The notes under the pieces were generated by a model. It saw nothing but the letters and a program-made list of their open reading frames with translations, was not told the DNA's origin and ran no database searches. A stretch of 64,000 nucleotides of DNA from Candidatus Oxydemutatoraceae bacterium (GTDB taxonomy: Bacteria > Pseudomonadota > Gammaproteobacteria > Poriferisulfidales > Oxydemutatoraceae). Location of the stretch: positions 96,001 through 160,000 of the forward strand of contig CBDCOZ010000001.1 of assembly GCA_965220085.1 (NCBI GenBank), written 5' to 3'. Of the stretch, positions 26,797 to 63,887 are shown one piece after another (the first letter of the stretch is position 1; each line of letters starts with the position of its first letter). Both the position numbers and the translations under genes were made by a program.

Positions 26797-27318
26797 TTAC
26801 CGCAGGGGCCCTTCCAGGAAAAGGCGCAAGCGCAACAGCAGAGTCGGTTCCTGATCCGGTTCCTGCTGTTGGAGAATGCATTCCGTCGCGCCGTCCAGAT
26901 TCGCGCCTGCCGGAGACATGCCCGCCCCGCAGTTGAAAACATACGGTTCCATCGGCGGAATCCTCTCAAACGCCGCCGTGACTGCCGCGATTTCTTTCGC
27001 AGTAGTGTCCAGTGTGCCCAGCGACGGAAAGGGAATCCCGTTGTTCTTAAATGTTTGAATCAAAACGAATCCGAAGGAGGGGAAAGAGACTCTCAATTGG
27101 TCGAGGCTGGTTTGGGTGATGGCTTCGTTAATATAGTCCGGCTCGCCGTTGTATCGCCCCAAAACCGCGTCCGCATAAGCCAGCGCCACCGGGCCAACAT
27201 TGCCGCTAAGTCGGGTGTTTATCAACCGAAAGTCGTCAGTGAGCTTTTGCACCCGCGGCGGAATGACCGCATTGCCGCTCATGGGGCCTTTGTTGGTTAT
27301 TTGGCAAATTCTAGACAT
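26797..27318 (-). CDS. Chimeric ORF: L28 N-terminus, Cys-repeat fragment and LRLRLFLEGPLR tail
   Basis: [16 protein letters not shown] copy of rpmB; YVFNCGAGMSPAGANLDGATEC shared with 32629..33627. Confidence 0.65.
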   Translation of the reverse strand: MSRICQITNKGPMSGNAVIPPRVQKLTDDFRLINTRLSGNVGPVALAYADAVLGRYNGEPDYINEAITQTSLDQLRVSFPSFGFVLIQTFKNNGIPFPSLGTLDTTAKEIAAVTAAFERIPPMEPYVFNCGAGMSPAGANLDGATECILQQQEPDQEPTLLLRLRLFLEGPLR

Positions 27319-27393
27319 CGGTTTTTGTGGTTGCTCAATGAAACAAGGGACAGATTGTGCCACAAGCCGCCCCATCGCCGCAGGGGACTCGCA

Positions 27394-28275
27394 TTACCGC
27401 AGGGGCCCTTCCAGGAAAAGGCGCAAGCGCAACAGCAGGTTCTCTACGACTATGATGTTGCCGTCGGTGCATCGCGTCTCGTTAGCGGGAGTGGCATGCT
27501 GATCCATGAAAGAGGCGCAGACGCGGACGTATGTCCCCGCATGTGCCTGCCGGGGGGTAAAGGTGGCGGCGGTCGCGCCGTCGATGTCTTCGTATGCATC
27601 GGCGGCCGGGATGCCGCTGGCCGGGGCCGCGGCCGATTGCCATTGCCAGCGCAGGGTGCCGGTGTTTATGATGTTGTTGTCGGCTATAGTGCCGATGGCG
27701 GCGGTGATGGGCACATCCTTGTTCCAGGCGGTGCCTGTGTCGGCGGATACGACGGGGGCGCCGGTGGCGGCCTCTTGGGTGGGGTTGAACAGGCGGATGG
27801 TCATGGTGCCCTTTGCGTTGCCGAGGCTTCCTGCGGTGAGGACATAGAAAAAGAATGTGGCGTAGTTGCGCGTCTGTGCCTGGCCCGTGGGCGGATGGTA
27901 GCTGATGGTGGATATGGCGTTTGCGGTCACAACAACTCTGGTTCCAAAAGTCGTGCCGGTGACGGCGGAGGAGCCCGCCCGCAGAGTGCCCCTTGTGGGT
28001 TTCGATAATCCCACACTGACGAGGGCATCATCTTCCGCATCGGTGAAGCGGAAGTCGGATAGCTTGAAGTGGTACGGGGATGCGGCGGTGGCGTCTATGG
28101 ACACATCAACGCTGGACGGCTGTGCCTGAGGGTCGAAGTTTTGCGCCTGGGCCTGGCCGCAGACGGCAATCAGGGCCGGCAGAATAAGCGACCGGAGGTT
28201 GCGTCGGGTCATTGCCGAGTCAATCCCCTTGCTTACAAAACTGCGCGGGCGCGTATCAAAAGTTTGTCGTTTCAT
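27394..28275 (-). CDS. Exported Ig/cadherin-like protein with LRLRLFLEGPLR tail
   Basis: MKRQTFDT leader, AQAQ cleavage-like site, TGAPVVS...WQWQ...YVRVCASF...C module. Confidence 0.8.
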   Translation of the reverse strand: MKRQTFDTRPRSFVSKGIDSAMTRRNLRSLILPALIAVCGQAQAQNFDPQAQPSSVDVSIDATAASPYHFKLSDFRFTDAEDDALVSVGLSKPTRGTLRAGSSAVTGTTFGTRVVVTANAISTISYHPPTGQAQTRNYATFFFYVLTAGSLGNAKGTMTIRLFNPTQEAATGAPVVSADTGTAWNKDVPITAAIGTIADNNIINTGTLRWQWQSAAAPASGIPAADAYEDIDGATAATFTPRQAHAGTYVRVCASFMDQHATPANETRCTDGNIIVVENLLLRLRLFLEGPLR

Positions 28276-28318
28276 AATTCTGCTCCCGATGTGGTTTGCG
28301 CATACAGTGCGTTTCCTA

Positions 28319-30173
28319 TTAGCGCAACGGGCCTTCCAGGAAGAGGCGCAGGCGCAGTAGCAGACTTGAGCTGGCAACCGCAGGAAGGCCAAGGCTGCAT
28401 CGCTCCTCGTCTGCCGGTGTGGTGGGGTGCTGGTCCTTGAAGGAGGCGCATACGCGAATGTATTTGCCGATATGGGCGGCGCGAGGCGTGAAGCGGGAGG
28501 TGCTGCCCGTTGTCGCGGTGTCTTCTATATCGTCGTAGGCGCCGATTACAAAGGTGGGGCTGGAGGGGGCATCGGCTTCTTGCCACTTCCAACTCAGGGT
28601 GTTTGTATCAACGCCATTTTGATCGGCCACGCCATAGATGGAAGCTGTCAGCGGCGCATTGGCGGCATATGAAGCGCCCATGCCGCCCGTCACCGTGGGC
28701 GCCCCCCCGGCGACCTGTTGCGTGGTTTCTCCCAGAACCAGATTGATGGTGACAGTGCCATGCGAACTGATGGCGGTGGTATCACTCAGAGAGTAGCCGC
28801 GATAAGTGAAACTGGTAAAGCCGGGGGTGATGGAAATGGCCTCGGGGGGAGGTATCCAGAACAGATTTTGCGTAGCGTTGGCGGCAAAGTCGCTGGGGAT
28901 GACTGAGCTCGTATCCTCATTGCCGCGGAGAATGGTTCCGTTCCTCCTGACCAATCTGCCACGGTCAGGCACAGTGATTATTTCCACAATAAAATTGCTT
29001 CTGGTGACGGCGTTGCCATCCGCATCCTTGAAGGCAAAGTCGTTTAGCTGAAAGAGATAGCGATCGCTCCCAACCCCGACATCAACGCTGGTATCCTGGG
29101 CGGCGGGGATGCCGCTTGTCTGGGACGTACCGGCCACAGGAGCGCCGATGTTGCATCGCTCCTCGTCTGCCGGCGCGGGGTGCTGGTCCTTGAAGGAGGC
29201 GCAGACGCGAATGTATTTGCCGACATGGGCGGCGCGCGGCGTGAAGCCGGAGGTGAGGCCGCCCGTTGTCGCGGCGCCCGCTATATCGCTGTAGGCATCA
29301 TCACTGACTGCAGAGGAGCCGCTGGAGGGGATATCGGCCTGTTGCCACTGCCCAGGCAAGGGTGCTTGTATCAATGCCATTTCGATCCTCCACGCCATAG
29401 ATGGAAGCTGTCAGCGGCGCATTGGTGGCATATGAAGCGCCCATGCCGCCCGTCACCGTGGGCGCCCCCCCGGCGACCTGTTGCGTGGTTTCTCCCAGAA
29501 CCAGATTGATGGTGACAGTGCCATGCGAACTGATGGCGGTGGTATCACTCAGAGAGTAGCCGCGATAAGTGAAGCTGGCAAAGCCGGGGGTGATGGAAAT
29601 GGCCTCGGGGGGAGGTATCCAGAACAGATTTTGCGAAGAGTTGGCGGCAAAGTCGCCGGGGATGACTGAGCTCGTATCCTCATTGCCGCGGAGAATGGTT
29701 CCGTTCCTCCTGACCAATCTGCCACGGTCAGGCACAGTGATTATTTCCACAGCAAAATTGCTTCTGGTGACGGCGTTGCCATCCGCATCCTTGAAGGCAA
29801 AGTCGTTTAGCTGAAAGAGATAGCGATCGCTCGCAACCCCGACATCAATGCTGGTATCCTGGGCGGCGGGGATGCCGCTTGTCTGGGCCGAGGCGCAGGT
29901 CGCGCTTAATGCCAGGGACAGGGCCAGCAGGCAACGCGCGGCGGCTCCGGTCATAGCCCGGCGGGCGGTGCCCGCCACTCGCACAGACATCAGGCGCACT
30001 GCAACAGACCACAGCGACAGCATCAACCCACGCACCGCCGGGGGGCGAGACCGCTTTGCGGACTGCGGATATGCGGGTGATAAAAAACGGGTGAGAAGGC
30101 GATACGGCGAAACGCCGACAATCCTCTTATTGACAAGACTGCGCGGGCGTGTATCAAAAGTTTGTCGTTTCAT
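28319..30173 (-). pseudogene. Double-module exported protein split by a +1 frameshift (or sequencing error)
   Basis: ORFs 29301..30173 and 28319..29398 join if the extra C at about 29351-29353 is removed (ctgCCCagg here versus ctgCCagg in paralogs). Confidence 0.75.
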
Positions 30174-30215
30174 AATTCTGCTCCCGATGTGGTTGTTCAT
30201 AAAATGTGTTTCTCA

Positions 30216-31439
30216 TTACCGCAAGGGGCCTTCCAGGAAAAGGCGCAAGCGCAAGCGCACGGCAGTCAAACCTATGGTGAGGGTGGCCTCGTTGCTGTCG
30301 GCATCGCCATCGCTGAGGGTGAAGCCAAGGGTGGCGCTTACAAGGGGGGCGCTTGACGAATTGTCGTCGATTACGGTCAAGGTCAGGTCGCCGCCGCTGA
30401 AGTCGCCGTTTGTTATGGCCAGGGTCTGATCCTCCGTCACTGCTTCGTTGTTGAAGTTGAGGGTGAGGCCCGCCTGCGGGGGCAAGGCAGTGATGGTGAC
30501 CGATGCCAACTCATCGCCATCGTCATCGTCATATGCGCCTATGAAGACGCTGGCGGGTATGGTGATGGGCGCACTGTCACCAGCGGAGCGGGAGGCCTGG
30601 TATCTGGCATCGGCAGCCTTCGGCGCGAACTTCACCGTGATGGTGAAAGTGTAATCGGCAGACACGGCAGGGCTGGCAGAATCCGTCACCGTCAGAGTGT
30701 AGGTGGTGGTGGGCATGGCTTCCGTCGGGGTGCCGGAAAACAGATACCAGTAATCAAGAAGGGGATGGTTTCCACCGCTCATACCGGCGGGCAAGGCGGG
30801 TGAAATGCTGAATGTCAGGGGCCTGACGCCGCCGCCGGGGTTGATTGCATAATCAGCTGGCAAAGCCTCGCCAACTATCCAAACCTGATCAGTGCCTCCC
30901 CTATCCAGAGCGGCTTGCAAAGTGGTTAATACGCCGGAAAGACGCGGATGCCATGTGGGCCCCTGCAACACTTCAATGGTGAAGGTATCGCTCACCGTGT
31001 CGCCGTCTGCGTTGGTGGCCGTGTATGTGTAAGTGGTTTCGGCCTTGGCGGCTGTGGGGTTGCCCGCAAGCGCCCTGGTGGAGGCTGTGAATGTCAGACC
31101 CGCAGGCAGGGCGGGTGTGAGCGTATAGGTGTAGGTGCCGTCCGGCAGAGCATTGGGCAACGCGAAGTTTAGCGCGCCCCCATTTGTAGCATACAGCCGA
31201 TCGTGCAAGGCGGCATTGAAGCTGAGCGTCTGCGCGAACGCGGGGGAGGCCGCAACCGACAGCAGCAATATCGCAACCGACAGCCCGGCCACAGCTGGGC
31301 AACGCAACCGCACTGCGGTGCATGGCGAGTATATGAGGGATGGCGGCAGAAAGAGGGCGGCGAGGCGATGAAGCCAGGCGGCCGCAATCCCCTTATTTAA
31401 AAGACTGCGCAGGCGCGTATCAAAAATTTTTCGTTTCAT
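30216..31439 (-). CDS. Exported protein with He_PIG-like Ig repeats and LRLRLFLEGPLR tail
   Basis: AFAQ cleavage site; two PALPAG(L/M)...G(N/T)PT...TTYT repeats; cadherin-like D-rich module. Confidence 0.8.
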   Translation of the reverse strand: MKRKIFDTRLRSLLNKGIAAAWLHRLAALFLPPSLIYSPCTAVRLRCPAVAGLSVAILLLSVAASPAFAQTLSFNAALHDRLYATNGGALNFALPNALPDGTYTYTLTPALPAGLTFTASTRALAGNPTAAKAETTYTYTATNADGDTVSDTFTIEVLQGPTWHPRLSGVLTTLQAALDRGGTDQVWIVGEALPADYAINPGGGVRPLTFSISPALPAGMSGGNHPLLDYWYLFSGTPTEAMPTTTYTLTVTDSASPAVSADYTFTITVKFAPKAADARYQASRSAGDSAPITIPASVFIGAYDDDDGDELASVTITALPPQAGLTLNFNNEAVTEDQTLAITNGDFSGGDLTLTVIDDNSSSAPLVSATLGFTLSDGDADSNEATLTIGLTAVRLRLRLFLEGPLR

Positions 31440-31481
31440 AGTTCTACTCCCGATGTGGTTTGTATATAAAATGTGTTTCCA

Positions 31482-32585
31482 TTACCGTAGCGGGCCTTCG
31501 AGGAAAAGGCGCAGGCGCAGTAGCAGACTTGAGCCGGATGACGCACCTTCCACAGGAAGGCTAAAGCTGCATCGCTCCTCGGATACCGGCGTGGAGTGCT
31601 GGTCCTTGAAGGAGGCGCATACGCGAAGGTATTTGCCGGCATGCTCGGCGCGCGGCGTGAAGCCGGAGGTGAGGCCGCCCGTTGTCGCGGTGTCCGCTAT
31701 ATCGCTGTAGTCCTCCTCACTGACTACAGAGGTGCCGCTGGAGGGGGCAGCGGCCTCTTGCCACTGCCAGCCCAGGGTGCTTGTATCAATGCCATTTACA
31801 TCAGACACGCCATAGACGGAAGCTGTCAGCGGCGTATTGACGGCATATGAACCGCCCGTGCCGCCCGTCACCGTGGGCGCGCCCTTGGCGGCTGCCTGCG
31901 TGGTTGATGCCACCATGTTGATGGTGACGGTGCCATGCGAACTGAAGGTGCTGATATCATTGTAACTGTAGCCGCGATAAATGAAACTGGTATAGCCGGG
32001 GGCGGCAGAAATGACATCAAAGGGAGGCACCCAGTGCACATTTCCCAACCGACCGACGGGAAAGTCGGTAGGGGTGATTGAAGGCGGCTGATTACCGCTA
32101 GTGCGGAGAATGCCCCCGGCTCTTGTAACCAATACGCCACGGTCAGGCAAAGCGACCACTTCCACGACCCAATTACTTCTGGTGACGGCGTTGCCATTCG
32201 CATCCTTGAAGGCAAAGTCGTTTAACTCAAAGAGGTAGGTATCGTCCCCAATCTCGACATCAACGCTGGTATCCTGGGCGGCGGGGATGCCGCTGGTCTG
32301 GGCCGAGGCGCAGGTTGCGCCCAATGCCAGAGACAGCGCTAACAGGCAACGCATGGCGGTTCCGGATGCAACCCCGTCGATTGCTACCGCTACTCGTGCG
32401 GGCGCAAAGAGCGCCACAAACTGCCGCCACAGCGAAAGCCGCAGACCGGACACAGCCGGGCAACGCAACCGCACTGCGGCGAATGGCGGGTTGCGATGTG
32501 CGGGTGATGAAAACCGGGTGGAAACGCCCGCAATCCCCTTATTTAAAAGACTGCGCGGGCGCGTATCAAAAATTTGTCGTTTCAT
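31482..32585 (-). CDS. Exported Ig/cadherin-like protein with LRLRLFLEGPLR tail
   Basis: MKRQIFDT start after AGGAG RBS; ASAQ site; paralog of 34694..35782. Confidence 0.85.
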   Translation of the reverse strand: MKRQIFDTRPRSLLNKGIAGVSTRFSSPAHRNPPFAAVRLRCPAVSGLRLSLWRQFVALFAPARVAVAIDGVASGTAMRCLLALSLALGATCASAQTSGIPAAQDTSVDVEIGDDTYLFELNDFAFKDANGNAVTRSNWVVEVVALPDRGVLVTRAGGILRTSGNQPPSITPTDFPVGRLGNVHWVPPFDVISAAPGYTSFIYRGYSYNDISTFSSHGTVTINMVASTTQAAAKGAPTVTGGTGGSYAVNTPLTASVYGVSDVNGIDTSTLGWQWQEAAAPSSGTSVVSEEDYSDIADTATTGGLTSGFTPRAEHAGKYLRVCASFKDQHSTPVSEERCSFSLPVEGASSGSSLLLRLRLFLEGPLR

Positions 32586-32628
32586 GGCATTACTCCTATG
32601 GTGGTTTGCATATACAGTGTGTTTCCCA

Positions 32629-33627
32629 TTACCGCAACGGGCCCTCCAGGAAGAGGCGTAGCCGCAAGCGCAGGTTGGCGGCACATTCCGTCGCACCATT
32701 CAGATTCGCCCCCTGCGGAGACATGCCCGCTCCGCAATCGAAAACATACCGCACCGAATCCTCCTTTTCCGGAAAGGCGAGCTCTGCTGCGCCGAATACA
32801 TCCGCGCACTGCGGCGAACCCGAACCGAAAACGCACCATTCAAATTCCGTCTCGCCCGAAATCAGCGGGATGTTGCACCTGAAGAAGGCGGTGGCGGTGG
32901 AAATAGTCCACCCCTGATCCGCACATGTGCGAATCCCCTCCCGCTCGGCGGGGGTTAAGCCGGTCGGAAAGGCCGTGCAGTTCGGCCATGTGCCGACGTG
33001 CGAGTTCAAATCGCAGGAGCATTCGGTTGCGCCCTTCAGGTTTTGGTCCGGCGGATAGCCGCCGGGGATACTTCCGCCCTGGTCGCAATTTGCCACAAAG
33101 CGGTCCCCGCCCTCGGGTTTAACGGTGGGATGGTCCGCCGCTTTCGGAAAAACCGGCGGACTGCCGTATATATCCGTGCATAATGGCAGATTCCCTCGAA
33201 CAAAACAGAATTGGGCTCCCCTGTTGACTTCCGTCATGTCGCCGTAAAGAAAGGATGGAATTTCGCATCCTAACTCTCCGGTGAAAAAGGAAATTAAGCC
33301 GCTGACGGTGCCGTCCCCCCATCCCGCATTCCTGCAAGCATTCACAATAGCGAAGTCCGCATCGGCAAAACAACCGGTGTTAAATTCGGAACCCGGCGCT
33401 GTGGAAGAGATTCGCGTTTGCCCTTGGGGGCATGGGGTTTGCGCTGACGCGCCGTCCGCGGCGAATGCGAATGCGAGCATCATCGCCGCGCAAATTTTAA
33501 GAGGGTCAATTGACGCGAAGATTAATTCAGACATCCTGCGTGAAGACGCAACCAGCGACCGGAGGCTACGCCGAGTCATCGTCGCCCGGCAATGCGGGAG
33601 GGGAGTATCAAAAACTTGTCGTTTCAT
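32629..33627 (-). CDS. Exported cysteine-rich protein with LRLRLFLEGPLR tail
   Basis: MKRQVFDT leader, ASAQ site, two internal Cys-rich repeats ending NLxGATEC. Confidence 0.8.
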   Translation of the reverse strand: MKRQVFDTPLPHCRATMTRRSLRSLVASSRRMSELIFASIDPLKICAAMMLAFAFAADGASAQTPCPQGQTRISSTAPGSEFNTGCFADADFAIVNACRNAGWGDGTVSGLISFFTGELGCEIPSFLYGDMTEVNRGAQFCFVRGNLPLCTDIYGSPPVFPKAADHPTVKPEGGDRFVANCDQGGSIPGGYPPDQNLKGATECSCDLNSHVGTWPNCTAFPTGLTPAEREGIRTCADQGWTISTATAFFRCNIPLISGETEFEWCVFGSGSPQCADVFGAAELAFPEKEDSVRYVFDCGAGMSPQGANLNGATECAANLRLRLRLFLEGPLR

Positions 33628-33669
33628 AGTTCTACTCCCGATGTGGTTTGTATATAAAATGTGTTTCCA

Positions 33670-34650
33670 TTACCGCAACGGGCCTTCCAGGAAAAGCCGC
33701 AAGCGCAAGCGCAGACTTGAGCCGGATGTGCCGACCACAGGAAGGCCGAGGGTGCATCGCTCCTCGTCGTTCGGCGTGGAGTGCTGGTCCTTGAAGGAGG
33801 CGCATACGCGAATGTATTTGCCGGCATGGGCGGCAAGGGGCCTAAAGTTAGCATCGGTGGCATCCTCTATATCGCCGTAGACACCGACTATAGAGGTGCC
33901 GCTGGAGGGCGCAGCGGCCTGTTGCCACTGCCAGGCAAGGGTACTTGTATCAATGCCATTTTGATCCGCCACGCCGTATATGGAAGCCGTCAGCGGCGTA
34001 TTGAGGCGATATGAAATGGCCGTGCCGCCCGCCACCGTGGGCGTGCCGACGGCTTCCTGTTGTATGGGTGACCCCACCACCAGGTTGATGGTGATGATGC
34101 CGCGCGAACTGTCAATGGTGGTTGCATCAAGGGAGAAGCCCGTATAGGCGAAACTGGTGTAGTTGGGAGTGACAGAGATGGCGTCATCGGGGAGCACCCA
34201 AACGAGATTTCGTGAATCCCCGTCGGCAAAGTCGCCGGATACCAGCAAATTCAAGTCATTATCAATGCGGATAATGCTTCCGCTCCTCTTAATCAATATG
34301 CCGCGGTCAGGCAAAGTGGCCACTTCTATGGCAAAACCACCGATTGCAAGGCTGGCGCCACTCGCATCGGTGAAGGCAAAGTCGGTGGTCTTGAAGGTGT
34401 AGGCGGAGCCTCCAATCGGAACATCAACGCTGATATTCTTGGCTACGGGGACGCCGCCGGTCTGTGCCCAGGCGCAGGTTGCGCCCAATGCCCAGACACA
34501 GCAACAACAGACCGCGCACAGCCGGGTGCGCGACCGTGCTACGGCGGATGGCGGGTTGCGATGTGCGGGTGATAAAAAACGGGCGGAAATGCCGGCAATC
34601 CCCTTGTTTACAAGACTGCGCGGGCGCGTATCAAAAATTTGTCTGTTCAT
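33670..34650 (-). CDS. Exported Ig/cadherin-like protein with LRLRLFLEGPLR tail
   Basis: MNRQIFDT leader, AWAQ site; paralog of neighbours. Confidence 0.85.
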   Translation of the reverse strand: MNRQIFDTRPRSLVNKGIAGISARFLSPAHRNPPSAVARSRTRLCAVCCCCVWALGATCAWAQTGGVPVAKNISVDVPIGGSAYTFKTTDFAFTDASGASLAIGGFAIEVATLPDRGILIKRSGSIIRIDNDLNLLVSGDFADGDSRNLVWVLPDDAISVTPNYTSFAYTGFSLDATTIDSSRGIITINLVVGSPIQQEAVGTPTVAGGTAISYRLNTPLTASIYGVADQNGIDTSTLAWQWQQAAAPSSGTSIVGVYGDIEDATDANFRPLAAHAGKYIRVCASFKDQHSTPNDEERCTLGLPVVGTSGSSLRLRLRLFLEGPLR

Positions 34651-34693
34651 AGCATTACTCCTATGGTGGTTTGCATATACAGTGTGTTTCCCA

Positions 34694-35782
34694 TTACCGC
34701 AACGGGCCTTCCAGGAAGAGACGCAAGCGCAAGCGCAGACTTGAGCCGGACGACGTACCTTCCACAGGAGCGCCTATGCTGCATCGCTCCTCGTCTGCCG
34801 CCGCGGGGTGCTGGTCCTTGAAGGAGGCGCAGACGCGAATGTATTTGCCGACATGGGCGGCGCGCGGCGTGAAGCCGGAGGTGAGGCCGCCCGTTGTCGC
34901 GGCGCCCGCATCGCTGTAGGCATCATCACTGACTGCAGAGGTGCCGCTGGAGGGGATATCGGCCTGTTGCCACTGCCAGGCAAGGGTGCTTGTATCAATG
35001 CCATTTCGATCCTCCACGCCATAGATGGAAGCTGTCAGCGGCGCATTGGTGGCATATGAAGTGCCCATGCCGCCCGTCACCGTGGGCGCCCCCCCGGCGA
35101 CCTGTTGCGTGGTTTCTCCCAGAACCAGATTGATGGTGACAGTGCCATGCGAACTGATGGCGGTGGTATCACTCAGAGAGTAGCCGCGATAAGTGAAACT
35201 GGCAAAGCCGGGGGTGATGGAAATGGCCTCGGGGGGAGGTATCCAGAACAGATTTTGCGAAGAGTTGGCGCCAAAGTCGCTGGGGATGACTGAGCTCGTA
35301 TCCTCATTGCCGCGGAGAATGGTTCCGTTCCTCCTGACCAATCTGCCACGGTCAGGCACAGTGATTATTTCCACAACAAACTTGCTTCTGGTGGCGGCGT
35401 TGCCATCCGCATCCTCGAAGGCAAAGTCGTTTAGCTGAAAGAGATAGCGATCGCTCGCAACCCCGACATCAATGCTGGTATCCTGGGCGGCGGGGATGCC
35501 GCTTGTCTGGGCCGAGGCGCAGGTCGCGCCCAATGCCAGGGACAGCGCTAACAGGCAACGCGCGGCGGCTCCGGCCATAGCCCGGCGGGCGGTGTTTGCC
35601 GGGCGCACTGCAACAGACCGCAACGACAGCATCAACCCGCGCATCGCCGGGGGGCGAGACCGCTTTGCGGACTGCGGATATGCGGGTGATAAAAAACGGG
35701 TGAGAAGGCGATACGGCGAAACGCCGACAATCCCCTTATTGAGAAGACTGCGCGGGCGCGTATCAAAAGTTTGTCGTTTCAT
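34694..35782 (-). CDS. Exported Ig/cadherin-like protein with LRLRLFLEGPLR tail
   Basis: MKRQTFDT start after AGGAG RBS; nearly identical to both modules of 28319..30173. Confidence 0.85.
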   Translation of the reverse strand: MKRQTFDTRPRSLLNKGIVGVSPYRLLTRFLSPAYPQSAKRSRPPAMRGLMLSLRSVAVRPANTARRAMAGAAARCLLALSLALGATCASAQTSGIPAAQDTSIDVGVASDRYLFQLNDFAFEDADGNAATRSKFVVEIITVPDRGRLVRRNGTILRGNEDTSSVIPSDFGANSSQNLFWIPPPEAISITPGFASFTYRGYSLSDTTAISSHGTVTINLVLGETTQQVAGGAPTVTGGMGTSYATNAPLTASIYGVEDRNGIDTSTLAWQWQQADIPSSGTSAVSDDAYSDAGAATTGGLTSGFTPRAAHVGKYIRVCASFKDQHPAAADEERCSIGAPVEGTSSGSSLRLRLRLFLEGPLR

Positions 35783-35825
35783 AGCATTACTCCTATGGCG
35801 GTTTGCATATACAGTGTGTTTCCCA

Positions 35826-36990
35826 TTACCGCAACGGGCCTTCAAGGAAGAGACGCAGGCGCAAGCGCAGACTTGAGCCGGACGACGTACCTTCCACAGG
35901 AAGGCCGATGCCGCATTGCTCCTCGCCTTTCGGTGTGGAGTGCTGGTCCTTGAAGGAGGCGCATACGCGAAGGTATTTGCCGACATGCTCGGCACGAGGC
36001 GTGAAGCCGGAGGAGAGGCCGCCCGTTGTCGCGGTGCCCTGTATAGGGCTGTAGTCACCCTCACTGACTACAGAGGTGCCGCTGGAGGGGATATCGGCCT
36101 GTTCCCACTGCCAGGCAAGGGTGCTTGTATCAATGCCATTTCGATCAGCCACGCCATAGATGGAGGCTGTCAGCGGCGTATTGACGGCATATGAAGTGCC
36201 CGTGCCGCCCGTCACCGTGGGCGCACCAGTGGGGCTTAGTTGCGAGGATGCTCCCACCAGATTGATGGTGATGGTGCCATGCAAACTGTCGGTGTCGACA
36301 TCATTGAAACTGTAGCCGCGATAAGTAAAACTGGTATAGGCGGGGGTGACAGAAATGGCATCAAAGGGAGGAACCCAGAGTGGATTTGCTAAATTTTGGT
36401 CCCCAAAGTCGCCAGGGAGGAATACACTCCCCGTATGATTGCTGCGGATAACGGTAGCGTTTCTTTTAACCAATATGCCATGGGCAGGCAAAGTGACCAC
36501 TTCCACGACGAAACTATTTCTGTTGGCGGTGTTGCCATTCGCATCCTTGAAGGCAAAGTCGTTGAGCCGAAACTCGTAGGCGCTACTCCCAATCCGGACA
36601 TCAATGCTGGTATCCTGGGCGGCGGGGATGCCGCCTGTCTGGGCCCAGACGCAGGTTGCGCCTAATGCCAGAGACAGGGCCAGCAGGCAACGCGCGGCGG
36701 CTCCGGTCATAGCCCGGCGGGCGGTGTTTGCCGGGCGCACTGCAACAGACCACAGCGACAGCATCAACCCACGCACCGCCGGGGGGCGAGACCGCTTTGC
36801 GGACTGCGGATATGCGGGTGATAAAAACCGGGTGAGAAGGCGATACGGCGAAACGCCGACAGGCCCCTTGCTTGTAAGGCTAGGGGGGGGGGGGGGGTAG
36901 TATTAACATTCTCTGCTTCGCACTATATGCTTGCAAATACAACCGCTTCCGCCTGCTTGAGGGGGCGGTATTAGAAGCTTGTCGGTTCAT
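35826..36990 (-). CDS. First gene of the array, out of frame at a poly-G/C tract (putatively phase-variable)
   Basis: GAGGAG RBS plus ATG at 36990 (MNRQASNT...); C15 gives LPPPPP-stop, C14 or C17 reads into SLTSKGPVGVSPYRLLTRF as in paralogs. Confidence 0.7.
36883..36897. repeat. G15 homopolymer
   Basis: 15 consecutive G residues. Confidence 0.95.
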
Positions 36991-57133: not shown

Positions 57134-57152
57134 TTCGCTCAATCGCTATCCG

Positions 57153-57183: not shown

Positions 57184-57258
57184 TCGCCGCCCGCCCCTTG
57201 TTCCGTCGGCAGAACACGGCTTGTCAAACGAAACGCCTAACCCTCTGTATTTCCGCAT

Positions 57259-59739
57259 ATGGCAATAATCATATATCATGCGGGAAACACCCTATATCAA
57301 ATGTGCCAAATGATTAACATCCGCTTACGCATATGCGGGCTTGCCTGTCTCATCGCGTGCATATCGGCGCCGCAGGCATACGCGCAGGAAGAGGCCGAGC
57401 ATCTGGTGGTTGTCGGTTCGCGCACCGCCGTGCGCGCCGCATACGACACCAATGTGCCGGTCGATGTGATCAGCAGCGAGGACATCGCCCGCACCCATGT
57501 GACGGAGACCGCGAAGCTGATTCAAACGTTGGTGCCGTCATTCAACTTCTCGGTTTCCACCGTCAGCGACGGTACCGATGCGGTGCGCCCGGCGACTCTG
57601 CGCGGTCTGTATCCGGATCAAGTGCTGGTGCTGGTCAATGGCAAACGCCGGCACACCAGCGCCTTGTTGCATGTCAATGGTTCGGTCGGTCGCGGTTCGG
57701 TCGGCGTCGATCTCAATGCGATTCCGCCGTCGGCGATAGAACGGATTGAGGTGTTGCGCGACGGCGCCGCCGCCCAGTACGGCTCGGATGCGGTGGCCGG
57801 CATTATCAACATCGTGCTCAAGGAGCGGGTCGGCGAGACCGAGGCGCAGGCTTACTACGGGGAGACCTATCAGGGCGATGGCGAGCAACGCCGCTATAGT
57901 TTCAACGGCGGATTCGCCCTCGCCGAAACGGGTTTCTTTAACCTGACCGCCGAGCGGCGCGATCGCAACCCGACCAACCGCGCGGGCGAGGACATACGGT
58001 GCCAATACGGAGGAACAGCCCCCGACTGCAATGACCCGGCCAGAGAAGCGCGTTTTGACCGCGTCAGTCATCGGGTCGGCGATGCCGAGTCGGATAACGA
58101 TTATGTGTTTTTTAATTCCGCGCTGCCTTTGCGCAACGGCGTTGAACTCTATGCGTTCGGCGGCATCAGTCAGCGCGAGACCGAGGCGGGCGGGTTCTAC
58201 CGCCGCGCTTCCGACCGGCGCAACCTGCCGTCGGTTTATGCGGACGGTTTTCTGCCGCTGATCACAACCGATGTGGATGACGATTCGCTGGCGCTCGGGG
58301 CCAAGTTTGATCTCGGCGCGTGGCGGGCGGATGTCAGCGCGCATTATGGCGAGAACACTTTTGATTTCCGGGTAAAGGATTCGCTCAATGTGTCTTTGGG
58401 CGCGGCGTCGCCGCGACAAGCCGATTCCGGCGGTTTGAAGTTTGATCAAACGGTATTCAAAGCCGATGCGACCCGTCCCTTGGAAATAGCGGATTTTGCG
58501 TTGGATATCGCGACCGGATACGAGTATCGCCGCGACGGCTATCGCATCCGCGCCGGTGATCCGGCTTCTTACATAGACGGCGGTCAACGCGCGCAGGACG
58601 GCGAGCGCGCCGACCCGGGCATTCAGGTGTTCCCCGGTTTCAGGCCCGAGAACGAGGTCGATGTCAGCCGCCACAATCATTCGCTCTATCTCGATGGAGA
58701 AAGTTGGGTGAGCGATAATCTGTCCCTTGCCGCCGCGGCGCGGTGGGAGAGTTACAGCGATTTTGGAAACGATATGAACGGCAAGCTGAGCATGCGCTAC
58801 GAGATGTCGGATGTGTTCGCACTGCGCGGCGCGGTGTCGTCGGGCTTTCGCGCGCCGTCTCTGGCACAGCAGTACTTCAACAACATCAGCACGCAATTTG
58901 TCCGAGGCGTTCCCAGAGAAGTGCTGACGGCCAATAACGCCAGCGGTTTTGTCCGCGCCATCGGCGGCGAAGCGCTGGAAGAGGAGAACTCGGTCAGCCT
59001 GAGTTTCGGTTTTGTCGCCAACCCGTTGCCCAGGCTGACTGTCACAGCGGACGCATACCGCGCGAAAATCAGGGATCGCATCGTCTTGTCAAGACAGTTT
59101 GTCAAGGACGACATACGCCCGGGCTTTGTGGCGGGCGCTGCCGATGCCTTGATGCGCGAGCACGATGTCGATATTGACGCTGTGCGGTTTCAGTTTTTCA
59201 GCAACGCGATGGATACGGTGACCCGCGGCCTGGATGTGATCGTTGATTATGACTATCCGTTGGACAGCGGCGCGGCGATAGATTTCACCGCGGCCTTGAA
59301 TTTCAACACCACCCGCAGGGACGGCGATATTGAGAATGTCGCCGGTCTGAGAGACGGGACGGCGCCGTTTACCGATATTGAGTCGTACCTCGAAGAGGGC
59401 AGCCCGCGACAGCGCTACAGTTTCACGACCAATTATGCCGACGGCGACAATAACTGGACATGGCGGCTGAATCACTATGGCAGCGTCGTATCCAGAGTGG
59501 ATACGGAGCCGCAACACTATGGCGCGCGCTGGCTGGCGGATGTTGAATATACCCGCAGTTTCGGCAACGAGATAGATTGGACGGTCGGCGCGCTAAACCT
59601 CTTTGATACCAGACCGGAGAGGAATTCGGATGCGAACCGATACGGTTCGGCCGGCGGCAGCTTCGTCTATAGCCGCCGCGTATCGCCGTTCGGCTTCAAC
59701 GGCGGCTTCTACTTCACCAACCTGAAGTACCGTTTCTAA
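57259..59739 (+). CDS. TonB-dependent outer membrane receptor
   Basis: LVVVGSR TonB box, LRGL...VLVNGKR plug, IERIEVLRDGAAAQYGSDAVAGIINI, C-terminal YRF; start may be 57301 or 57310. Confidence 0.92.
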   Translation: MAIIIYHAGNTLYQMCQMINIRLRICGLACLIACISAPQAYAQEEAEHLVVVGSRTAVRAAYDTNVPVDVISSEDIARTHVTETAKLIQTLVPSFNFSVSTVSDGTDAVRPATLRGLYPDQVLVLVNGKRRHTSALLHVNGSVGRGSVGVDLNAIPPSAIERIEVLRDGAAAQYGSDAVAGIINIVLKERVGETEAQAYYGETYQGDGEQRRYSFNGGFALAETGFFNLTAERRDRNPTNRAGEDIRCQYGGTAPDCNDPAREARFDRVSHRVGDAESDNDYVFFNSALPLRNGVELYAFGGISQRETEAGGFYRRASDRRNLPSVYADGFLPLITTDVDDDSLALGAKFDLGAWRADVSAHYGENTFDFRVKDSLNVSLGAASPRQADSGGLKFDQTVFKADATRPLEIADFALDIATGYEYRRDGYRIRAGDPASYIDGGQRAQDGERADPGIQVFPGFRPENEVDVSRHNHSLYLDGESWVSDNLSLAAAARWESYSDFGNDMNGKLSMRYEMSDVFALRGAVSSGFRAPSLAQQYFNNISTQFVRGVPREVLTANNASGFVRAIGGEALEEENSVSLSFGFVANPLPRLTVTADAYRAKIRDRIVLSRQFVKDDIRPGFVAGAADALMREHDVDIDAVRFQFFSNAMDTVTRGLDVIVDYDYPLDSGAAIDFTAALNFNTTRRDGDIENVAGLRDGTAPFTDIESYLEEGSPRQRYSFTTNYADGDNNWTWRLNHYGSVVSRVDTEPQHYGARWLADVEYTRSFGNEIDWTVGALNLFDTRPERNSDANRYGSAGGSFVYSRRVSPFGFNGGFYFTNLKYRF

Positions 59740-59816
59740 ATTCGCGCGCCCCGCATCGTATCGGCGGTCACATGTGTGATACCGATAAGTCGCGAAACTG
59801 ATAGAATGACAGGCGC

Positions 59817-62800
59817 GTGCGGGACACTTTCTTCAAAAACCGATACTTGACAGCGGCCATCGCGGTTGCGCTGGGGCTGTTTTTCGTGTTGCAACGCGAA
59901 GAACCGCAGCCGCTGATCCCGGACGACCCCTCTATGCCGCAGGCGTTGCGCGCGGCGATGGTCGAGCGCGATTTCGCCGCCGGCGCGCGCCAGATCAAGA
60001 CGCGCGCAACGGCGGTTGCCGCCGCGGCGGCTGCCGTCGTCGGTCGCAAAGCGCGGCAACGGTTAATTGTCCTTCATGATCCGGATGTCACGCGTATCGA
60101 CGGTGTCATGGAGACGCTCGCAAACTTTCCGGAGGTGACGGTGGAGGATATGCCGTTATTCAATATGTCGATCATAGAGGCGCCGGCGAGTTGGAACCTG
60201 CAATGGCTGAATGCGCTCGTCTCACTCGACGACTCCATTGAAGCGGTCGGCCCCGATATGATCGCCAAAGGTCTGGCGGTGACGCCGAACGATCCCGACT
60301 TCGGACAGCAACGCCACTTGTATCACGCGAGTTCTCCGGGCTCGGATATCAATGCGCGGGAAGCGTGGGCCTATACGACCGGCAACCCCGATGTCATCGT
60401 GGCGGTGATAGATTCGGGCATAGACTATACATACGACGATTTGGCTTCCAACCTGTGGGTCAATCGCGCGGAAGCCGACGGCGTTGCCGGTGTCGATGAC
60501 GATAACAACGGTTGTATCGATGACATACACGGCTGTGATTTTGTCAATGACGACGGCGACCCGTGGGATGACCGCGGGCACGGCACCCCGGTGGCGAGCG
60601 TTATCGGCATGCAAGGGAATAACGGGAGATTGGGCGCCGGCATCAACTGGAATGCCTCGATTATGTCGCTCAAGACGATCGACTACGACAACGACGGGCG
60701 CGTATCCGATAGCGTGCGGGCGTACTACTATGTTCTGAAGATGCGTTTGGCCGGGCACAACATACGGCTTATCAATGCCAGTTACGGAACGATTATCAGC
60801 GGCACAAACAGCTGTGCCCGGGAGGATTTGCCGACCGCCATAAGAGCCGAGCATATCGCGCTTGAGGAGTTGGGGCGCAACGGCGTGATGACCGTCGCCG
60901 CCGCCGGCAACGAAGGCAGGGACATTGACGACCCGAGCGCAAACCGCATCACTACGCCGGCTTGCCTGGACATAGACGGGTTGTTGAGCGTCGCCTCTTT
61001 GTCTTCCCGCGGTCTTCTGGCGGGCAGTTCCAATTACGGCGCCGAGTCGGTGGACTTGGCGGCCCCCGGCACGGGCGTGTTTGCGCTTGCCCCCGGGCGG
61101 AGGAACTTTCGCGGAGACTACGGGCAGGTCTCAAGCTATGTTCCCGCGGAGCGCAAAGCCCAAGCCGCGCGGTTGGAGACCGTCGTTTCAATTCCCGCCG
61201 ATACGACGGCAACGGCGGGCTGGAGCGTCGAAGGCGGCTGGGCGCGGGTGGCGGAAGGGGAAAGAATCTATTGGACCGACAGCCCCGATGGCAACCACCC
61301 CAATCAGGCCGATTTCAGCGTGACCCGCGACCCGATCGATTTGAGCATGTACGGCGAGAATGATTACTTGTTTCTGTCATTTGAACTTGCCACCGACCTG
61401 GAGTATGAGCCAAACCCTTCGTTGCCTCCGATATACTGCGCTTCTTCGTTTTGCGACGCCCTGTTTTTGGAAATCAGCGTCGATGGTCGGGATTGGCGGG
61501 CGCTGGATGCGTGGAGCAATATTAATTTTGCATCCGATGTTTCCATAGGCATTCCCCGCTGGGCGTATCGTGAGAACTTTCAATTCCGCTTCCGCCTGGT
61601 TTCGGATCCCGGCACGAACAAAGATGGCGTCAGGATCTACGATATTGCGCTGACCCGCTCCGATACGGGCAGCGATGTTTCGGTGCGCTTGAGCGGCACC
61701 TCGTTTGCCGCTCCGATGGTCACCGGCGCGGCCGCGTTGCTGTGGTCTTTCAAGCCCGATTTAACGCTCGCCGAAGTGCGTTCGGCGATACTTGACAACG
61801 TGCGGCCTTCCGCTGTCGCGGCGGTGCAAAACGGCACGGCAAGCGGCGGCACGCTCGATGCCGCCGCCGCGTTGCATTCTGTCGCCGAAGACGGCATTGA
61901 CTTGCAAGCGGGAGAAATCGCGCTGGTCGAAGGCGAGGAAGGGATGTTTGCGTTGCGCCTGACCCGCCCTCCGCAAGCGCCCGACAGCGTCGATCCCGGC
62001 GGCACATTGTCGAGTGACGACCCGCCGCCGACCATGCCGGACGCCGTTGCGGAGCAAGTGGCGCTGGCTGTCACCGCCGACCCGGCATCGCGTATTCGGG
62101 TGGATACGCCCGCTATCACGTTTACTCCGCAGAACTGGCACATCCCCCAAGCGGTTCGCTTCACAGCGGTTGACGATAACTTGGCCAATGGCGATGTGAT
62201 GGCGAGGCTGCAAGTTGCGGTGCGCGCGGACGAGTCTGTGCCTTCGTATCGCGAGTTGCCGCCACAGACGGTCGTCGTCAGCGTGGCGGACAATGAGTCA
62301 AAGTTATCGTTAGCCCCCGGCGCTCCGACACAAGTGGCGGAAGGCGCGAGCGCCACCTTCGCATTGTTGCTTGAGCCGGCCTTGAGCGAAGACCTGACCG
62401 TCACGTTGAGCGCGACCGGCAGCGCAATCGCAGGACAGGATTATCGGGCATTGCCCGCTGCTATAACGATAGCCGCCGGTGCGGGGCGCGCGGAACTGAC
62501 CCTGACGACGATTGATGATGCGTCGGCCGAGCGCACAAAAAACGTTTTGATACGGGTTGTGCCGCCGCCGTCGGCATCGGTCGTTCAAGATCCCGTATTG
62601 ATTCCGCTGGACATAGAAGACGATGACGCGCAACGTTTTTCGGTTGCGCTTGACAGAGACCGTATCAAGGAAGGCGAGCGCGCGCTTGTCACTATCGACA
62701 CGTCTATCGGCACGACCGAGGCTGTCGTCCTTTTGACAGACCGTATCGGCGGAGATGCAAGCGCCGAAGACTATCACATACCTGCGCCGGTCACGTTGCC

Positions 62801-63887
62801 GGCGGGTCAAACACAGCAACAGTTCTTTGTGACCGCCCGGACCGATGACCAAGACGAAGCCGACGAAGAGTTAATCATCCGCATAAGGTCCGCGGACGAA
62901 ACCCGGTTGCGAGGGGAGCGCCGATTTGCTCTGACGCTGGAAGATACGACGATTCCCAAGTTATTGCCCCTGTCGCCGGCAGAGGCAGAGGAAGGCGAGA
63001 CGGTGCGCATTGAGTTGCAAGTCGATACGCCGCCGTTGCAAGCCGTATCCGTGTGGGTGGCGGCGACGGGCACCGCCGTGCTCGGCGCGGATTATCCGTA
63101 TTTGCCGCATCAACTGCGTATTCCGGCGGGCGGAACCCGCACTTCGTTTTCGTTGCTGACCACCGAGGATAATCTTTTTGAGCCGGATGAACAGATTCGC
63201 TTGGTGTTTGCGCCGACGACTGCGACCGACGGACACCCGTTGTTGGCGAGCAGTCAAACGATGACGGTGACGATTCGCAATACCGACGGGCGGCCGCAAT
63301 TGGCATTGGACTCGCGGCTTCGTACCGACGCCGATGGCGACGCCGACCCTCAGCACCCCCCGCTCGTGATTCCGCCGAATACTCCGGACTTTGAGATGTA
63401 CGGCGTTGAGCTGGCTCGCTACCTCTCGTCGGTTCTTCCGCCGAGCGCCGCCGCCGAGTTGATCACCGTTGTGGCGACGGAAGAGGCGGGAGTGCGGCAC
63501 GGTTTTCGCGTTCGTATCGATCCCGCATCCGCGTATGCCGAAGCGATCACGATAGAGACATCGGGCACCGCTATTTACGGGCGCGACTACCGGATACATT
63601 TTCAACAGCCCGGCATGGAGTCGGTCGAACTGACCGAAGCGTCGGCGCGGACGAATATCGCGACAGGCACTCGAGTCGTCGCTGTTTTTGTCGAACCGCT
63701 TGCGGATGATACCGACGAAGACTTGTTTGAATTCGTCGAGGTTCGCGTATCGCCCGACGCAGGCGCGAACTTGGAAGGGGATGCGGCATTCGGATTTGTC
63801 ATCGCTTCCACTTCTGCGCTCATCTTTCAAGAGGCGGAGCCCATCAGGCTGCGCTTGCGCCTCTTTCTGGAAGGCCCGCTGCGGTAG
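59817..63887 (+). CDS. S8 subtilase with inserted beta domain, Calx-beta-like repeats and LRLRLFLEGPLR tail
   Basis: VIDSG, HGT, AAGN and GTSFAAP catalytic motifs; repeated TA..G.DY / DD..E..E; N-terminal hydrophobic segment. Confidence 0.9.
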   Translation: MRDTFFKNRYLTAAIAVALGLFFVLQREEPQPLIPDDPSMPQALRAAMVERDFAAGARQIKTRATAVAAAAAAVVGRKARQRLIVLHDPDVTRIDGVMETLANFPEVTVEDMPLFNMSIIEAPASWNLQWLNALVSLDDSIEAVGPDMIAKGLAVTPNDPDFGQQRHLYHASSPGSDINAREAWAYTTGNPDVIVAVIDSGIDYTYDDLASNLWVNRAEADGVAGVDDDNNGCIDDIHGCDFVNDDGDPWDDRGHGTPVASVIGMQGNNGRLGAGINWNASIMSLKTIDYDNDGRVSDSVRAYYYVLKMRLAGHNIRLINASYGTIISGTNSCAREDLPTAIRAEHIALEELGRNGVMTVAAAGNEGRDIDDPSANRITTPACLDIDGLLSVASLSSRGLLAGSSNYGAESVDLAAPGTGVFALAPGRRNFRGDYGQVSSYVPAERKAQAARLETVVSIPADTTATAGWSVEGGWARVAEGERIYWTDSPDGNHPNQADFSVTRDPIDLSMYGENDYLFLSFELATDLEYEPNPSLPPIYCASSFCDALFLEISVDGRDWRALDAWSNINFASDVSIGIPRWAYRENFQFRFRLVSDPGTNKDGVRIYDIALTRSDTGSDVSVRLSGTSFAAPMVTGAAALLWSFKPDLTLAEVRSAILDNVRPSAVAAVQNGTASGGTLDAAAALHSVAEDGIDLQAGEIALVEGEEGMFALRLTRPPQAPDSVDPGGTLSSDDPPPTMPDAVAEQVALAVTADPASRIRVDTPAITFTPQNWHIPQAVRFTAVDDNLANGDVMARLQVAVRADESVPSYRELPPQTVVVSVADNESKLSLAPGAPTQVAEGASATFALLLEPALSEDLTVTLSATGSAIAGQDYRALPAAITIAAGAGRAELTLTTIDDASAERTKNVLIRVVPPPSASVVQDPVLIPLDIEDDDAQRFSVALDRDRIKEGERALVTIDTSIGTTEAVVLLTDRIGGDASAEDYHIPAPVTLPAGQTQQQFFVTARTDDQDEADEELIIRIRSADETRLRGERRFALTLEDTTIPKLLPLSPAEAEEGETVRIELQVDTPPLQAVSVWVAATGTAVLGADYPYLPHQLRIPAGGTRTSFSLLTTEDNLFEPDEQIRLVFAPTTATDGHPLLASSQTMTVTIRNTDGRPQLALDSRLRTDADGDADPQHPPLVIPPNTPDFEMYGVELARYLSSVLPPSAAAELITVVATEEAGVRHGFRVRIDPASAYAEAITIETSGTAIYGRDYRIHFQQPGMESVELTEASARTNIATGTRVVAVFVEPLADDTDEDLFEFVEVRVSPDAGANLEGDAAFGFVIASTSALIFQEAEPIRLRLRLFLEGPLR

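Follow-up and report, generated by a model that had tools for sequence, protein, structure and literature searches.

The 64,000-nucleotide stretch analysed here (positions 96,001 to 160,000 of contig CBDCOZ010000001.1, from Candidatus Oxydemutatoraceae bacterium; we refer to the whole of it as the window) encodes ten proteins that end in one and the same 12-residue peptide, LRLRLFLEGPLR, which we call the tail. Comparison with other genomes suggests that the tail is probably the first beta-strand of an unnamed C-terminal protein module, detached from the rest of that module, and that it docks the protein that carries it (the cargo) onto a separate secreted protein (the acceptor) by completing the acceptor's fold. 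We judge a split-strand tag of this sort to be a new type of signal for the sorting or anchoring of proteins, on evidence that is comparative, because neither Pfam, NCBIfam nor the literature searched yielded a description of the module or of its split form.

The tail was first remarked upon in an earlier note, made from the letters of the window, which claimed ten open reading frames (ORFs) with an invariant C-terminal motif. In all ten, LRLRLFLEGPLR does stand immediately 5' of the stop codon, which is TAA in nine cases and TAG in one. The DNA of these ten tails differs at synonymous sites only, just as the note had it, and the same holds for the last nine codons across the genome. The note also took the bodies of the ten proteins to be unrelated. 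The He_PIG, Cys-rich and S8/Calx-beta bodies are indeed distinct, but the bodies are not all unrelated, because seven of the nine genes in the array at 26797-36776 (minus strand) are paralogues of one body type, 43-59% identical. The array genes share their 5' ends (MKRQ.FDT...), their ribosome-binding regions and short stretches of intergenic DNA, and the nine are therefore tandem paralogues. N-terminal export segments, which the note had counted in nine of the ten, we find in eight, the exceptions being the ORFs at 26797-27375 and 28319-29398. Finally, the note had presented the motif as a candidate new signal, and the Pfam and NCBIfam scans returned no described TIGRFAM or Pfam C-terminal domain, a match which by the note's own criterion would have refuted it; the tail matched no C-terminal sorting model of either collection in the six window proteins scanned (NCBIfam at E up to 1).

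The window belongs to an assembly of 2.49 Mb in three contigs, denoted G000, and the genome-wide pattern search that the note had called for reveals a tail far commoner than had been noted. In G000, 190 stop-to-stop ORFs of at least 60 amino acids end in LEGPLR, with 163 distinct 36-nucleotide tail sequences among them. The six-frame translation contains EGPLR 229 times, 224 of them ending at a stop codon (TAG 144, TAA 52, TGA 28), and a strict degenerate DNA pattern for the tail occurs 201 times in the genome and not once in the reversed-read control. The conserved part of the tail spans only 12-14 residues. Among the 190 ORFs the last nine residues vary only synonymously, the leucine at position -6 using six codons, and the last residue is arginine in all 220 tails with 20 residues of context. 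The many DNA versions, the purely synonymous change in the last nine codons and the use of all three stop codons together imply selection at the level of the peptide.

We consider it very improbable, then, that the conserved 3' end matters mainly as DNA, serving as a recombination or gene-conversion handle by which cassettes with conserved 5' ends are shuffled while the peptide has little function. Such a handle would account for the common 5' ends, intergenic DNA and 3' ends of the array genes, for one window ORF that is chimeric with rpmB DNA and one gene that fuses two body units, and for the hexamer [CT]GC[GA]AG that follows the stop codon in 93 of the 190 tail ORFs. It would not account for 163 DNA versions of 190 tails that change at synonymous sites only, nor for the same peptide on unrelated bodies far from the arrays (the subtilase, and giants of up to 15,193 residues), nor for the 213 of 218 DNA-level occurrences that lie in frame before a stop. 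Two related possibilities were ruled out. The tail is not a DNA repeat, whether a clustered regularly interspaced short palindromic repeat (CRISPR-like) or a repetitive extragenic palindromic (REP) element, because its variation is purely synonymous and nearly all of its DNA-level occurrences are in frame before a stop; nor does it reflect recoding of, or read-through at, the stop, because all three stop codons follow it and the next gene starts about 40 nucleotides downstream.

The 189 tail ORFs of at least 95 amino acids together make up about 19% of G000. By a crude heuristic, this cargo appears to be exported: 133 of the 189 have signal-peptide-like starts, compared with 454 of 1578 background ORFs, and in the other 56 the bodies are adhesin-like as well, although their starts are truncated or frame-shifted. 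Single-linkage clustering of the bodies merged 182 of the 189 ORFs through common domains and signal peptides, and therefore gives no usable count of families.

The counterpart of the tail appears among the relatives of G000. The body of the array gene at 33670..34650, used as a query, has 147 matches in G000 and one weak match among 18 relatives of the same family (genomes are denoted G and a number), a 3324-residue protein of G017 that ends ...LRIRSRVFLEGPLQ. Giant genes ending in LLRVKLFLEGPFR before the stop, in G015 and G017, are followed within about 30 nucleotides by a gene for a secreted protein of 264-276 residues with the motifs DPYC, VVDWVLxELR, ARKPAFLLSNGRVVDA and RHRNH; this is the acceptor. 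Genes ending in LFLEGPFR before the stop, in G002, G015 and G017, have the acceptor gene directly downstream in five of five cases. In G000 the homologue of these secreted proteins is one acceptor gene, at C3:469169-470137.

Neither the acceptor nor three fused relatives match a Pfam or NCBIfam family over cut-off. A search of 5.8 billion proteins yielded 22 acceptor relatives of similar length, which form an alignment, A1. The A1 profile in turn matches 12,267 of 1.84 billion cluster representatives at E up to 0.001, mostly Bacteroidota or Ignavibacteriota by title, and mostly at the C-terminus of the protein. In members of this family a segment such as NIKAFLEGPFNG, DIKVFLEGPFNG or LNLKIFLEGPFMG lies just upstream of the match. 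By this comparison, the tail corresponds to the beginning of the module as it ordinarily occurs, unsplit: an unnamed C-terminal module with a dockerin-like end, whose first strand (consensus LNLKVFLEGPFNG) the tail matches. The earlier note had likened the tail to a strand of the form LxVFLEGP in some Bacteroidota surface proteins, and the likeness is borne out, for the unsplit modules, mostly of Bacteroidota and Ignavibacteriota, begin with such a segment.

The features of the module divide between the two partners. The first segment has the pattern h-x-h-[KR]-h-F-L-E-G-P-[FY], and the tail aligns to its profile in 186 of 186 tail ORFs. The core motifs LP..PY, VDWVLVELR, A.LL..G.IVD and HRNH, together with a C-terminal pair of GD.N.DG repeats ending in QVP, are found in the acceptor and not in the tail proteins. 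The dockerin-like end has matches to dockerins in PDB at E 0.0033-0.9, and reaches 15.8 bits against Pfam Dockerin_1 (PF00404), below the cut-off of 22.9; the beta domain that precedes it has no sequence match in PDB. In one fused relative, Pfam Cohesin domains are present as well (E 2.4e-15).

In order to locate tail and acceptor on the module, we used a profile of 227 positions built from 57 unsplit modules, whose consensus begins EAAGIKLNLKVFLEGPFNG, and a profile of 21 positions for the first segment, built from the 57 fused sequences of other organisms and from no G000 tails. (A global MAFFT alignment of tails and modules misplaced the short tails, and profile mapping was used instead.) The acceptor is the sole match to the module in G000. 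It covers positions 19-219 of the 227 (E 2.8e-26), the match beginning at its residue 31, right after the signal peptide. The first-segment profile aligns to the C-terminus of all 186 of 186 tail ORFs, from profile positions 1-7 to position 16, which is the proline of FLEGP; tails of relatives score 14-22 bits against it. As aligned, the acceptor lacks exactly the part of the module that the tails would supply, the end of the one and the beginning of the other fitting within about three residues.

The same division can be followed across the module family. Of 169 members, 114 have the first segment, 39 lack it and 16 are partial or otherwise arranged. In 36 of the 39 segment-less members the remainder of the module starts no more than 75 residues from the N-terminus, in most of them after a signal peptide, while four are fragments that start at residue 1. 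Conversely, genome G001, of the same family as G000, has 27 matches to A1, all inside giant ORFs of 1272-17496 amino acids, and in nine of 11 fetched loci the module, headed by a first segment such as ARVVLQGAL, AHVYLQGAY or AGVFLQGAY, reaches the end of the ORF. Among 80 loci drawn from 185,579 species genomes, 99 copies of the module have the segment and six do not; five of these six are in genomes titled 'uncultured candidatus Porisulfidus sp.' and the sixth is at a contig edge. The hosts of unsplit modules are titled Ignavibacteriota, Bacteroidota, Calditrichota, Cloacimonadota and others. Judged from these collections, the splitting of the module is lineage-specific. Within the order, for which we compared 53 genomes (18 family relatives and 34 from outside the family among them), the module family occurs in 16 of the 18 relatives and in none of the 34. 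The order also holds genomes of small, SUP05-like size.

We regard it as well supported by these alignments, and very probably correct, that the tail and the first segment of the module have a common origin and that the acceptor is truncated in a complementary way. The history likely had three steps: a whole module at the end of giant proteins; then a stop codon and a new signal peptide, producing adjacent genes for tail and acceptor; and then the tail's spread to many further genes, all served by one acceptor.

Tails also occur outside G000, in altered form. The exact tail is found in none of 40 relatives, nor was it found in the species genomes or in the Joint Genome Institute (JGI) metagenome contigs scanned, both of which scans may omit the window's own genome. 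The looser pattern FLEGPLx before a stop occurs in 11-34 copies in each of five genomes of genus g3 and in four copies in G012, with one stray match in G021 and none elsewhere among the 53 genomes. A still looser pattern adds G016 (27 copies, RVFLEGALE before the stop), G018 (16), G003 (8), G009 (26) and G004 (11), in the last of which a giant protein ends LRLKVFLGGMVR; in G006, G010, G005, G014 and G001 the counts are at control level. Tails thus occur in genera g1, g3, g4 and g5, in the variants FLEGPLR, FLEGPLQ, FLEGALE and FLGGMVR according to genus. As far as these patterns reach, the tail is a feature of the bacterial family; it drifts from one genus to another, and it has been enormously expanded in G000.

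The best matches of the strand profile in G000 other than tails are three proteins that carry LRLRLRVFLEGPLRGG at the N-terminus, right after the signal peptide, in each case followed by a GGSS linker. Two of them have repeated GTYYI...GSYTL units, which by eye we take to be pre-peptidase C-terminal-like, while the third is presumably trypsin-like. A tag that can stand at either end fits docking by strand insertion, and argues against a signal that requires a free C-terminus or a sortase-like cut.

This bears on the possibility that the tail is a linear export signal which a translocon of the outer membrane (that of type II secretion, or some unknown channel) reads without any part for the acceptor, and that the tail resembles the first strand of the module merely as a relic of its origin. 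The 133 tail proteins with Sec-type N-termini must still cross the outer membrane, and a type II system is present; moreover, three genomes (G006, G010 and G005) have acceptors and no tails that we could find, so that the coupling of acceptor and tail is not strict in these data. We nevertheless think such a signal quite unlikely. We know of no linear terminal signal used by type II secretion, and the tag stands at N-termini as well. The truncation points of tail and acceptor match within some three residues, tail and acceptor genes are adjacent in all five LEGPFR cases, and the tail varies from genus to genus together with the module family, all of which speaks against an acceptor-independent signal.

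A different alternative makes the acceptor an enzyme. The ancestral module would then have processed its own N-terminal junction, and the free protein would bind the tail in the same groove and cleave the cargo, or ligate it to a surface molecule or an anchor protein. All four residues of the HRNH motif stay unchanged across the 22 acceptor-type sequences (22 of 22) and are invariant or near-invariant in the 57 module sequences, an unusual degree of conservation if the beta domain were purely structural; acceptors are likewise invariant in DPYC, in CPD and in the block ARKP..LSNGRVVDA, and one catalytic gene could serve about 190 substrates, fitting the 1-to-190 ratio of acceptor to tail genes. 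Even so, we hold an enzyme to be unlikely. No family, Pfam, NCBIfam or PDB sequence match links the acceptor to a catalytic fold, a sortase-like reaction would part the three N-terminal tags and their GGSS linkers from the cargo, and the position of the fused module at the very end of proteins, with a dockerin-like part, fits an attachment module.

Docking by strand complementation, which we prefer, may be pictured as follows. The ancestral module would consist of a beta-rich domain and, after it, two calcium-binding repeats that form a dockerin-like pair, all present in one piece on surface proteins in most organisms. In this family the gene would have been split just after the first strand, so that the strand stayed on the cargo as a tag, while the remainder gained its own signal peptide and became a separate, secreted acceptor. 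Cargo and acceptor would both be exported by Sec, the tag would insert into the groove left by the acceptor's missing strand, and the dockerin-like end of the acceptor would hold the complex at the cell surface. The strand nature of the segment, its place in the core of the fold and the open groove in the acceptor are putative, and it is by inference that we arrive at physical docking, at the role of an anchor protein and at the route of export. An amphipathic beta-strand that docks onto a scaffold through strand complementation is what the earlier note had proposed and, within the reach of sequence comparison, the 186 profile alignments, the complementary acceptor and the unsplit form in a sister genome lend that proposal support.

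The likely partner for the dockerin-like end would be a large protein encoded next to the acceptor. In G000 the order of genes (locus L031) is gspL, a gspM-like gene, a further ORF, small repeated ORFs, the acceptor, a secreted protein of 1369 residues and a rhombosortase. The 1369-residue protein ends in eight glycines, a hydrophobic stretch and RRQRR, and has a near-cut-off match to 'choice-of-anchor U'; among 24 G000 ORFs with a hydrophobic-plus-basic C-terminus, it alone has poly-Gly. The rhombosortase, 0.7 kb away, scores 95.9 bits against an NCBIfam cut-off of 84. Similarly, in G006 the genes for GspD, E, F, G ... L (all over cut-off) are followed by three acceptors, a 3634-residue protein with the same kind of end and a rhombosortase, and an acceptor is followed by such a protein in G003, G012 and G016 as well. 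Rhombosortase is found over cut-off in 17 of the 18 family relatives and in none of the 34 genomes outside the family, so that within the order it has one common phyletic pattern with the module family. We therefore suggest, on the conserved neighbourhood and this phyletic pattern, a link of the acceptor to the anchor protein and to type II secretion, and regard it as doubtful for the present. If there is such a link, the rhombosortase encoded next door would process the partner protein with its GlyGly-CTERM-like end, and the type II secretion system of the same cluster would deliver it. The stretch from the gsp genes to the acceptor (G000 C3:466200-468500, positions 2200-4500 of L031) contains three near-identical small units, each with a coiled-coil-like ORF of about 95 amino acids with a hydrophobic C-terminal end and then an ORF of about 175.

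A further property of the tail genes concerns their 5' regions. Runs of C or G that reach 8 nucleotides or more number 100 in G000, mostly 13-28 nucleotides long, and 82 of these sit in the 5' regions of tail ORFs (82 of 189), always as poly-C on the coding strand. The lengths of these tracts are spread evenly over the classes modulo 3 (26, 25 and 31), and an in-frame start lies upstream of the tract in only 29 of the 82. Tracts of this kind are the signature of slipped-strand contingency loci, and suggest phase variation of the tail repertoire. Homopolymer errors in the assembly could mimic some of the frame states of tract genes. At the tract at 36883-36897, a sample of about 1 in 100 of sequencing run X3 placed 0 reads, and one of the short contig pieces of X1 spans the tract unchanged.

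Several observations weigh against the docking that we propose or against parts of it. Single G000 tails score low against the first-segment profile, with a median of 9.3 bits and a median E of 0.3, and the case therefore rests on the uniformity of the 186 alignments, on the tails of relatives and on the complementary truncation. Signal peptides were judged by a crude heuristic alone. The invariant HRNH could mark an active site rather than a structural feature. Stand-alone acceptors occur in G006, G010 and G005, yet the patterns we used found no tails above control there. The GlyGly_CTERM model TIGR03501 has no match anywhere in G000 at E up to 1, Pfam Cohesin has none in G000 either, and the candidate anchor protein of 1369 residues has no Pfam family; because these searches came back empty, the step from acceptor to anchor is drawn from gene neighbourhood. 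Lastly, a single acceptor gene would have to serve about 190 tagged genes, a disproportion that phase variation would ease, since only part of the repertoire would then be made at once.

Taking the parts together, we tentatively put forward, as a possibility short of a probable one, a natural 'tag and catcher' display. Here the 12-residue strand would be a universal plug, usable at either end, by which some 190 phase-variable proteins (adhesin-like proteins, proteases and giants, together encoded by roughly one fifth of the genome) attach to one secreted adaptor, itself seated on a scaffold that is anchored by rhombosortase and delivered by type II secretion.

The features of the window, together with the N-terminally tagged proteins of G000, are collected in Table 1.

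Table 1. Tail-bearing genes and associated features; positions are those of the window unless a G000 contig is named.
Position	Strand	Feature	Details
26797..27375	-	Tail-bearing ORF, 192 aa, probably a chimeric fragment	Tail and stop 26797-26835; N-terminal ~38 residues repeat the beginning of ribosomal protein L28 (TIGR00009, E 2.4e-4, residues 20-38)
27394..28275	-	Tail-bearing array gene, 293 aa, MKRQTF start, signal peptide ending AQAQAQ	Tail and stop 27394-27432
28319..29398	-	Tail-bearing open frame, 359 aa, without its own signal peptide; apparent downstream part of a frame-broken gene	Tail and stop 28319-28357; overlaps ORF 29301-30173
29301..30173	-	Apparent 5' part of that frame-broken gene, 290 aa; MKRQTF start and signal peptide present, tail absent	Overlapping frames
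30216..31439	-	Tail-bearing array gene, 407 aa, He_PIG Ig-like domains	Tail and stop 30216-30254; Pfam He_PIG E 6.8e-15
31482..32585	-	Tail-bearing array gene, 367 aa, MKRQIF start	Tail and stop 31482-31520
32629..33627	-	Tail-bearing array gene, 332 aa, Cys-rich body, no family match (Pfam, NCBIfam)	Tail and stop 32629-32667
33670..34650	-	Tail-bearing array gene, 326 aa, query for the paralogue count	Tail and stop 33670-33708
34694..35782	-	Tail-bearing array gene, 362 aa, MKRQTF start	Tail and stop 34694-34732
35826..36776	-	Tail-bearing open frame, 316 aa, first array gene; MNRQ-type start upstream in another frame	Tail and stop 35826-35864
36883..36897	-	C15 tract on the coding strand (G15 on plus), 5' region of the first array gene	Reading frame changes here; candidate slipped-strand phase-variation tract
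59817..63887	+	Tail-bearing S8 subtilase, 1356 aa, N-terminal hydrophobic segment	Tail and stop 63849-63887; Pfam Peptidase_S8 E 3.2e-39, Calx-beta E 1.5e-11, DUF5006 E 3.2e-10
G000 C1:23868-25292, C1:36358-38001, C3:1171425-1173515		N-terminally tagged secreted proteins	Signal peptide, NPMTVPQDVLT..., LRLRLRVFLEGPLRGGSS

Of the nine array genes, two show damage: one by a piece of rpmB (26797-27375) and one by a broken frame (28319-30173). In the first case, the start of rpmB (ribosomal protein L28) and the DNA upstream of it are duplicated (window 26485-26790 and 26797-27375), the copy forming the first ~38 residues of the tail ORF, and the DNA 3' of the tails at 26797 and 27394 is identical; it is evidently a recent duplication that joined the 3' end of a tail gene to rpmB. 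In the second, we read the ORFs at 29301-30173 and 28319-29398 as one broken gene, from their overlapping frames and their likeness to the intact paralogue at 34694-35782. Its downstream part joins two body units directly (...APVAGTS to QTSGIPAAQ...), the intervening tail, spacer and signal peptide being deleted, which points to recombination between members of the array. Directly upstream of the tail-bearing subtilase is the gene for a TonB-dependent receptor (57259-59739), from which it follows that the organism has an outer membrane, and a second tail-bearing subtilase lies just past the window (G000 C1:160379-166492).

Elsewhere in G000, four tail-coding copies stand at a spacing of 156 nucleotides (C3:513720-514226), and about 30 tail remnants lie on very short frames of 2-49 amino acids; these look like decayed or tandemly repeated gene ends. 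The hexamer that directly follows the stop of many tails, for example at window 63888-63893, occurs in the versions CGCGAG (53), TGCGAG (19), CGCAAG (9), CGCGAA (7) and TGCAAG (5). A terminator-like fold 3' of the tails was considered and rejected: the mean folding energy, -14.34, equals the mean of -14.38 for shuffled sequence.

If the tail does dock by completing the fold of a separate protein, proteins would be sorted or anchored in a way that none of the known classes of signal covers, for the signal would act through the completion of a fold and not as a membrane anchor or as a cue to a translocon. The tail and its partner would then be a ready-made natural peptide tag with its catcher, and a host-associated bacterium would gain a switchable surface coat. 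Carried by about 190 proteins, or some 19% of the genome, the tag would define the whole surface repertoire of the organism, seemingly switched by poly-C tracts. The module is found in 12,267 cluster representatives and lacks a model in both Pfam and NCBIfam; once named, it would bring annotation to many proteins of Bacteroidota, Ignavibacteriota and related phyla. An acceptor encoded within a cluster for type II secretion and rhombosortase might also offer a handle on how that route chooses its cargo.

It remains to compare the tail with the systems that it resembles. In donor-strand complementation, as in chaperone-usher pili and the type V pili of Bacteroidota, a strand from another polypeptide completes a beta domain. 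The likeness is one of principle: a beta domain without one of its strands would be completed in trans, and the supplied strand has alternating hydrophobic residues. The pilus strand, however, polymerises like subunits and needs a chaperone and an usher, whereas here one type of acceptor would receive about 190 unrelated cargos, and the strand is a 12-residue terminal tag, seemingly split off by the fission of a module that is whole elsewhere.

The X-Doc arrangement of cohesin-dockerin systems offers a second likeness, for it too places a beta domain and then two calcium-binding repeats at the C-terminus of secreted proteins. The acceptor differs from it in that Dockerin_1 stays below cut-off, Pfam Cohesin finds no match in G000 and the beta domain has no PDB sequence match, and we know of no cellulosome in which a split leaves one strand on the cargo.

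Among C-terminal sorting signals, GlyGly-CTERM and rhombosortase are linked to type II secretion, as for VesB of Vibrio. In G000 the resemblance to this system belongs to the neighbouring 1369-residue protein (poly-Gly, hydrophobic helix and arginine cluster, beside rhombosortase and gsp genes) and not to the tail, which has no helix and no basic cluster after a helix; TIGR03501, moreover, is unmatched in G000. The earlier note had set the tail apart from LPXTG, PEP-CTERM, GlyGly-CTERM and MYXO-CTERM, and rightly so, given 12 residues that end EGPLR before the stop, no hydrophobic helix and no NCBIfam sorting model. It had also distinguished the tail from the beta-signal of the beta-barrel assembly machinery (BAM), which has a C-terminal aromatic residue; the arginine that ends 220 of 220 tails agrees with that distinction. 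The C-terminal domains of the type IX secretion system (T9SS) are whole beta-sandwich domains of about 70-100 residues. Like the tail, they serve as C-terminal signals for a large and unrelated set of surface proteins within a single genome, and the unsplit module is common in the same phyla; the NCBIfam T9SS sorting models (type A/B) found no match in the window proteins scanned or in the three fused relatives, the genes of the T9SS machinery not being searched. Type I secretion, for its part, employs no N-terminal Sec signal and reads the C-terminal ~50 residues, often with repeats-in-toxin (RTX) repeats, whereas 133 of 189 tail ORFs have a signal-peptide-like N-terminus by our heuristic and the conserved part of the tail is only 12-14 residues long.

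Lastly, SpyTag/SpyCatcher and strand 11 of split green fluorescent protein (GFP) are split-domain tags made in the laboratory, SpyTag forming an isopeptide bond with its partner. The tail system differs from these in being natural and in giving no indication of covalent chemistry. Yet it would work on the same principle, in which a short peptide from a beta domain, usable at either end of the cargo, rebuilds a fold with the remainder of that domain.

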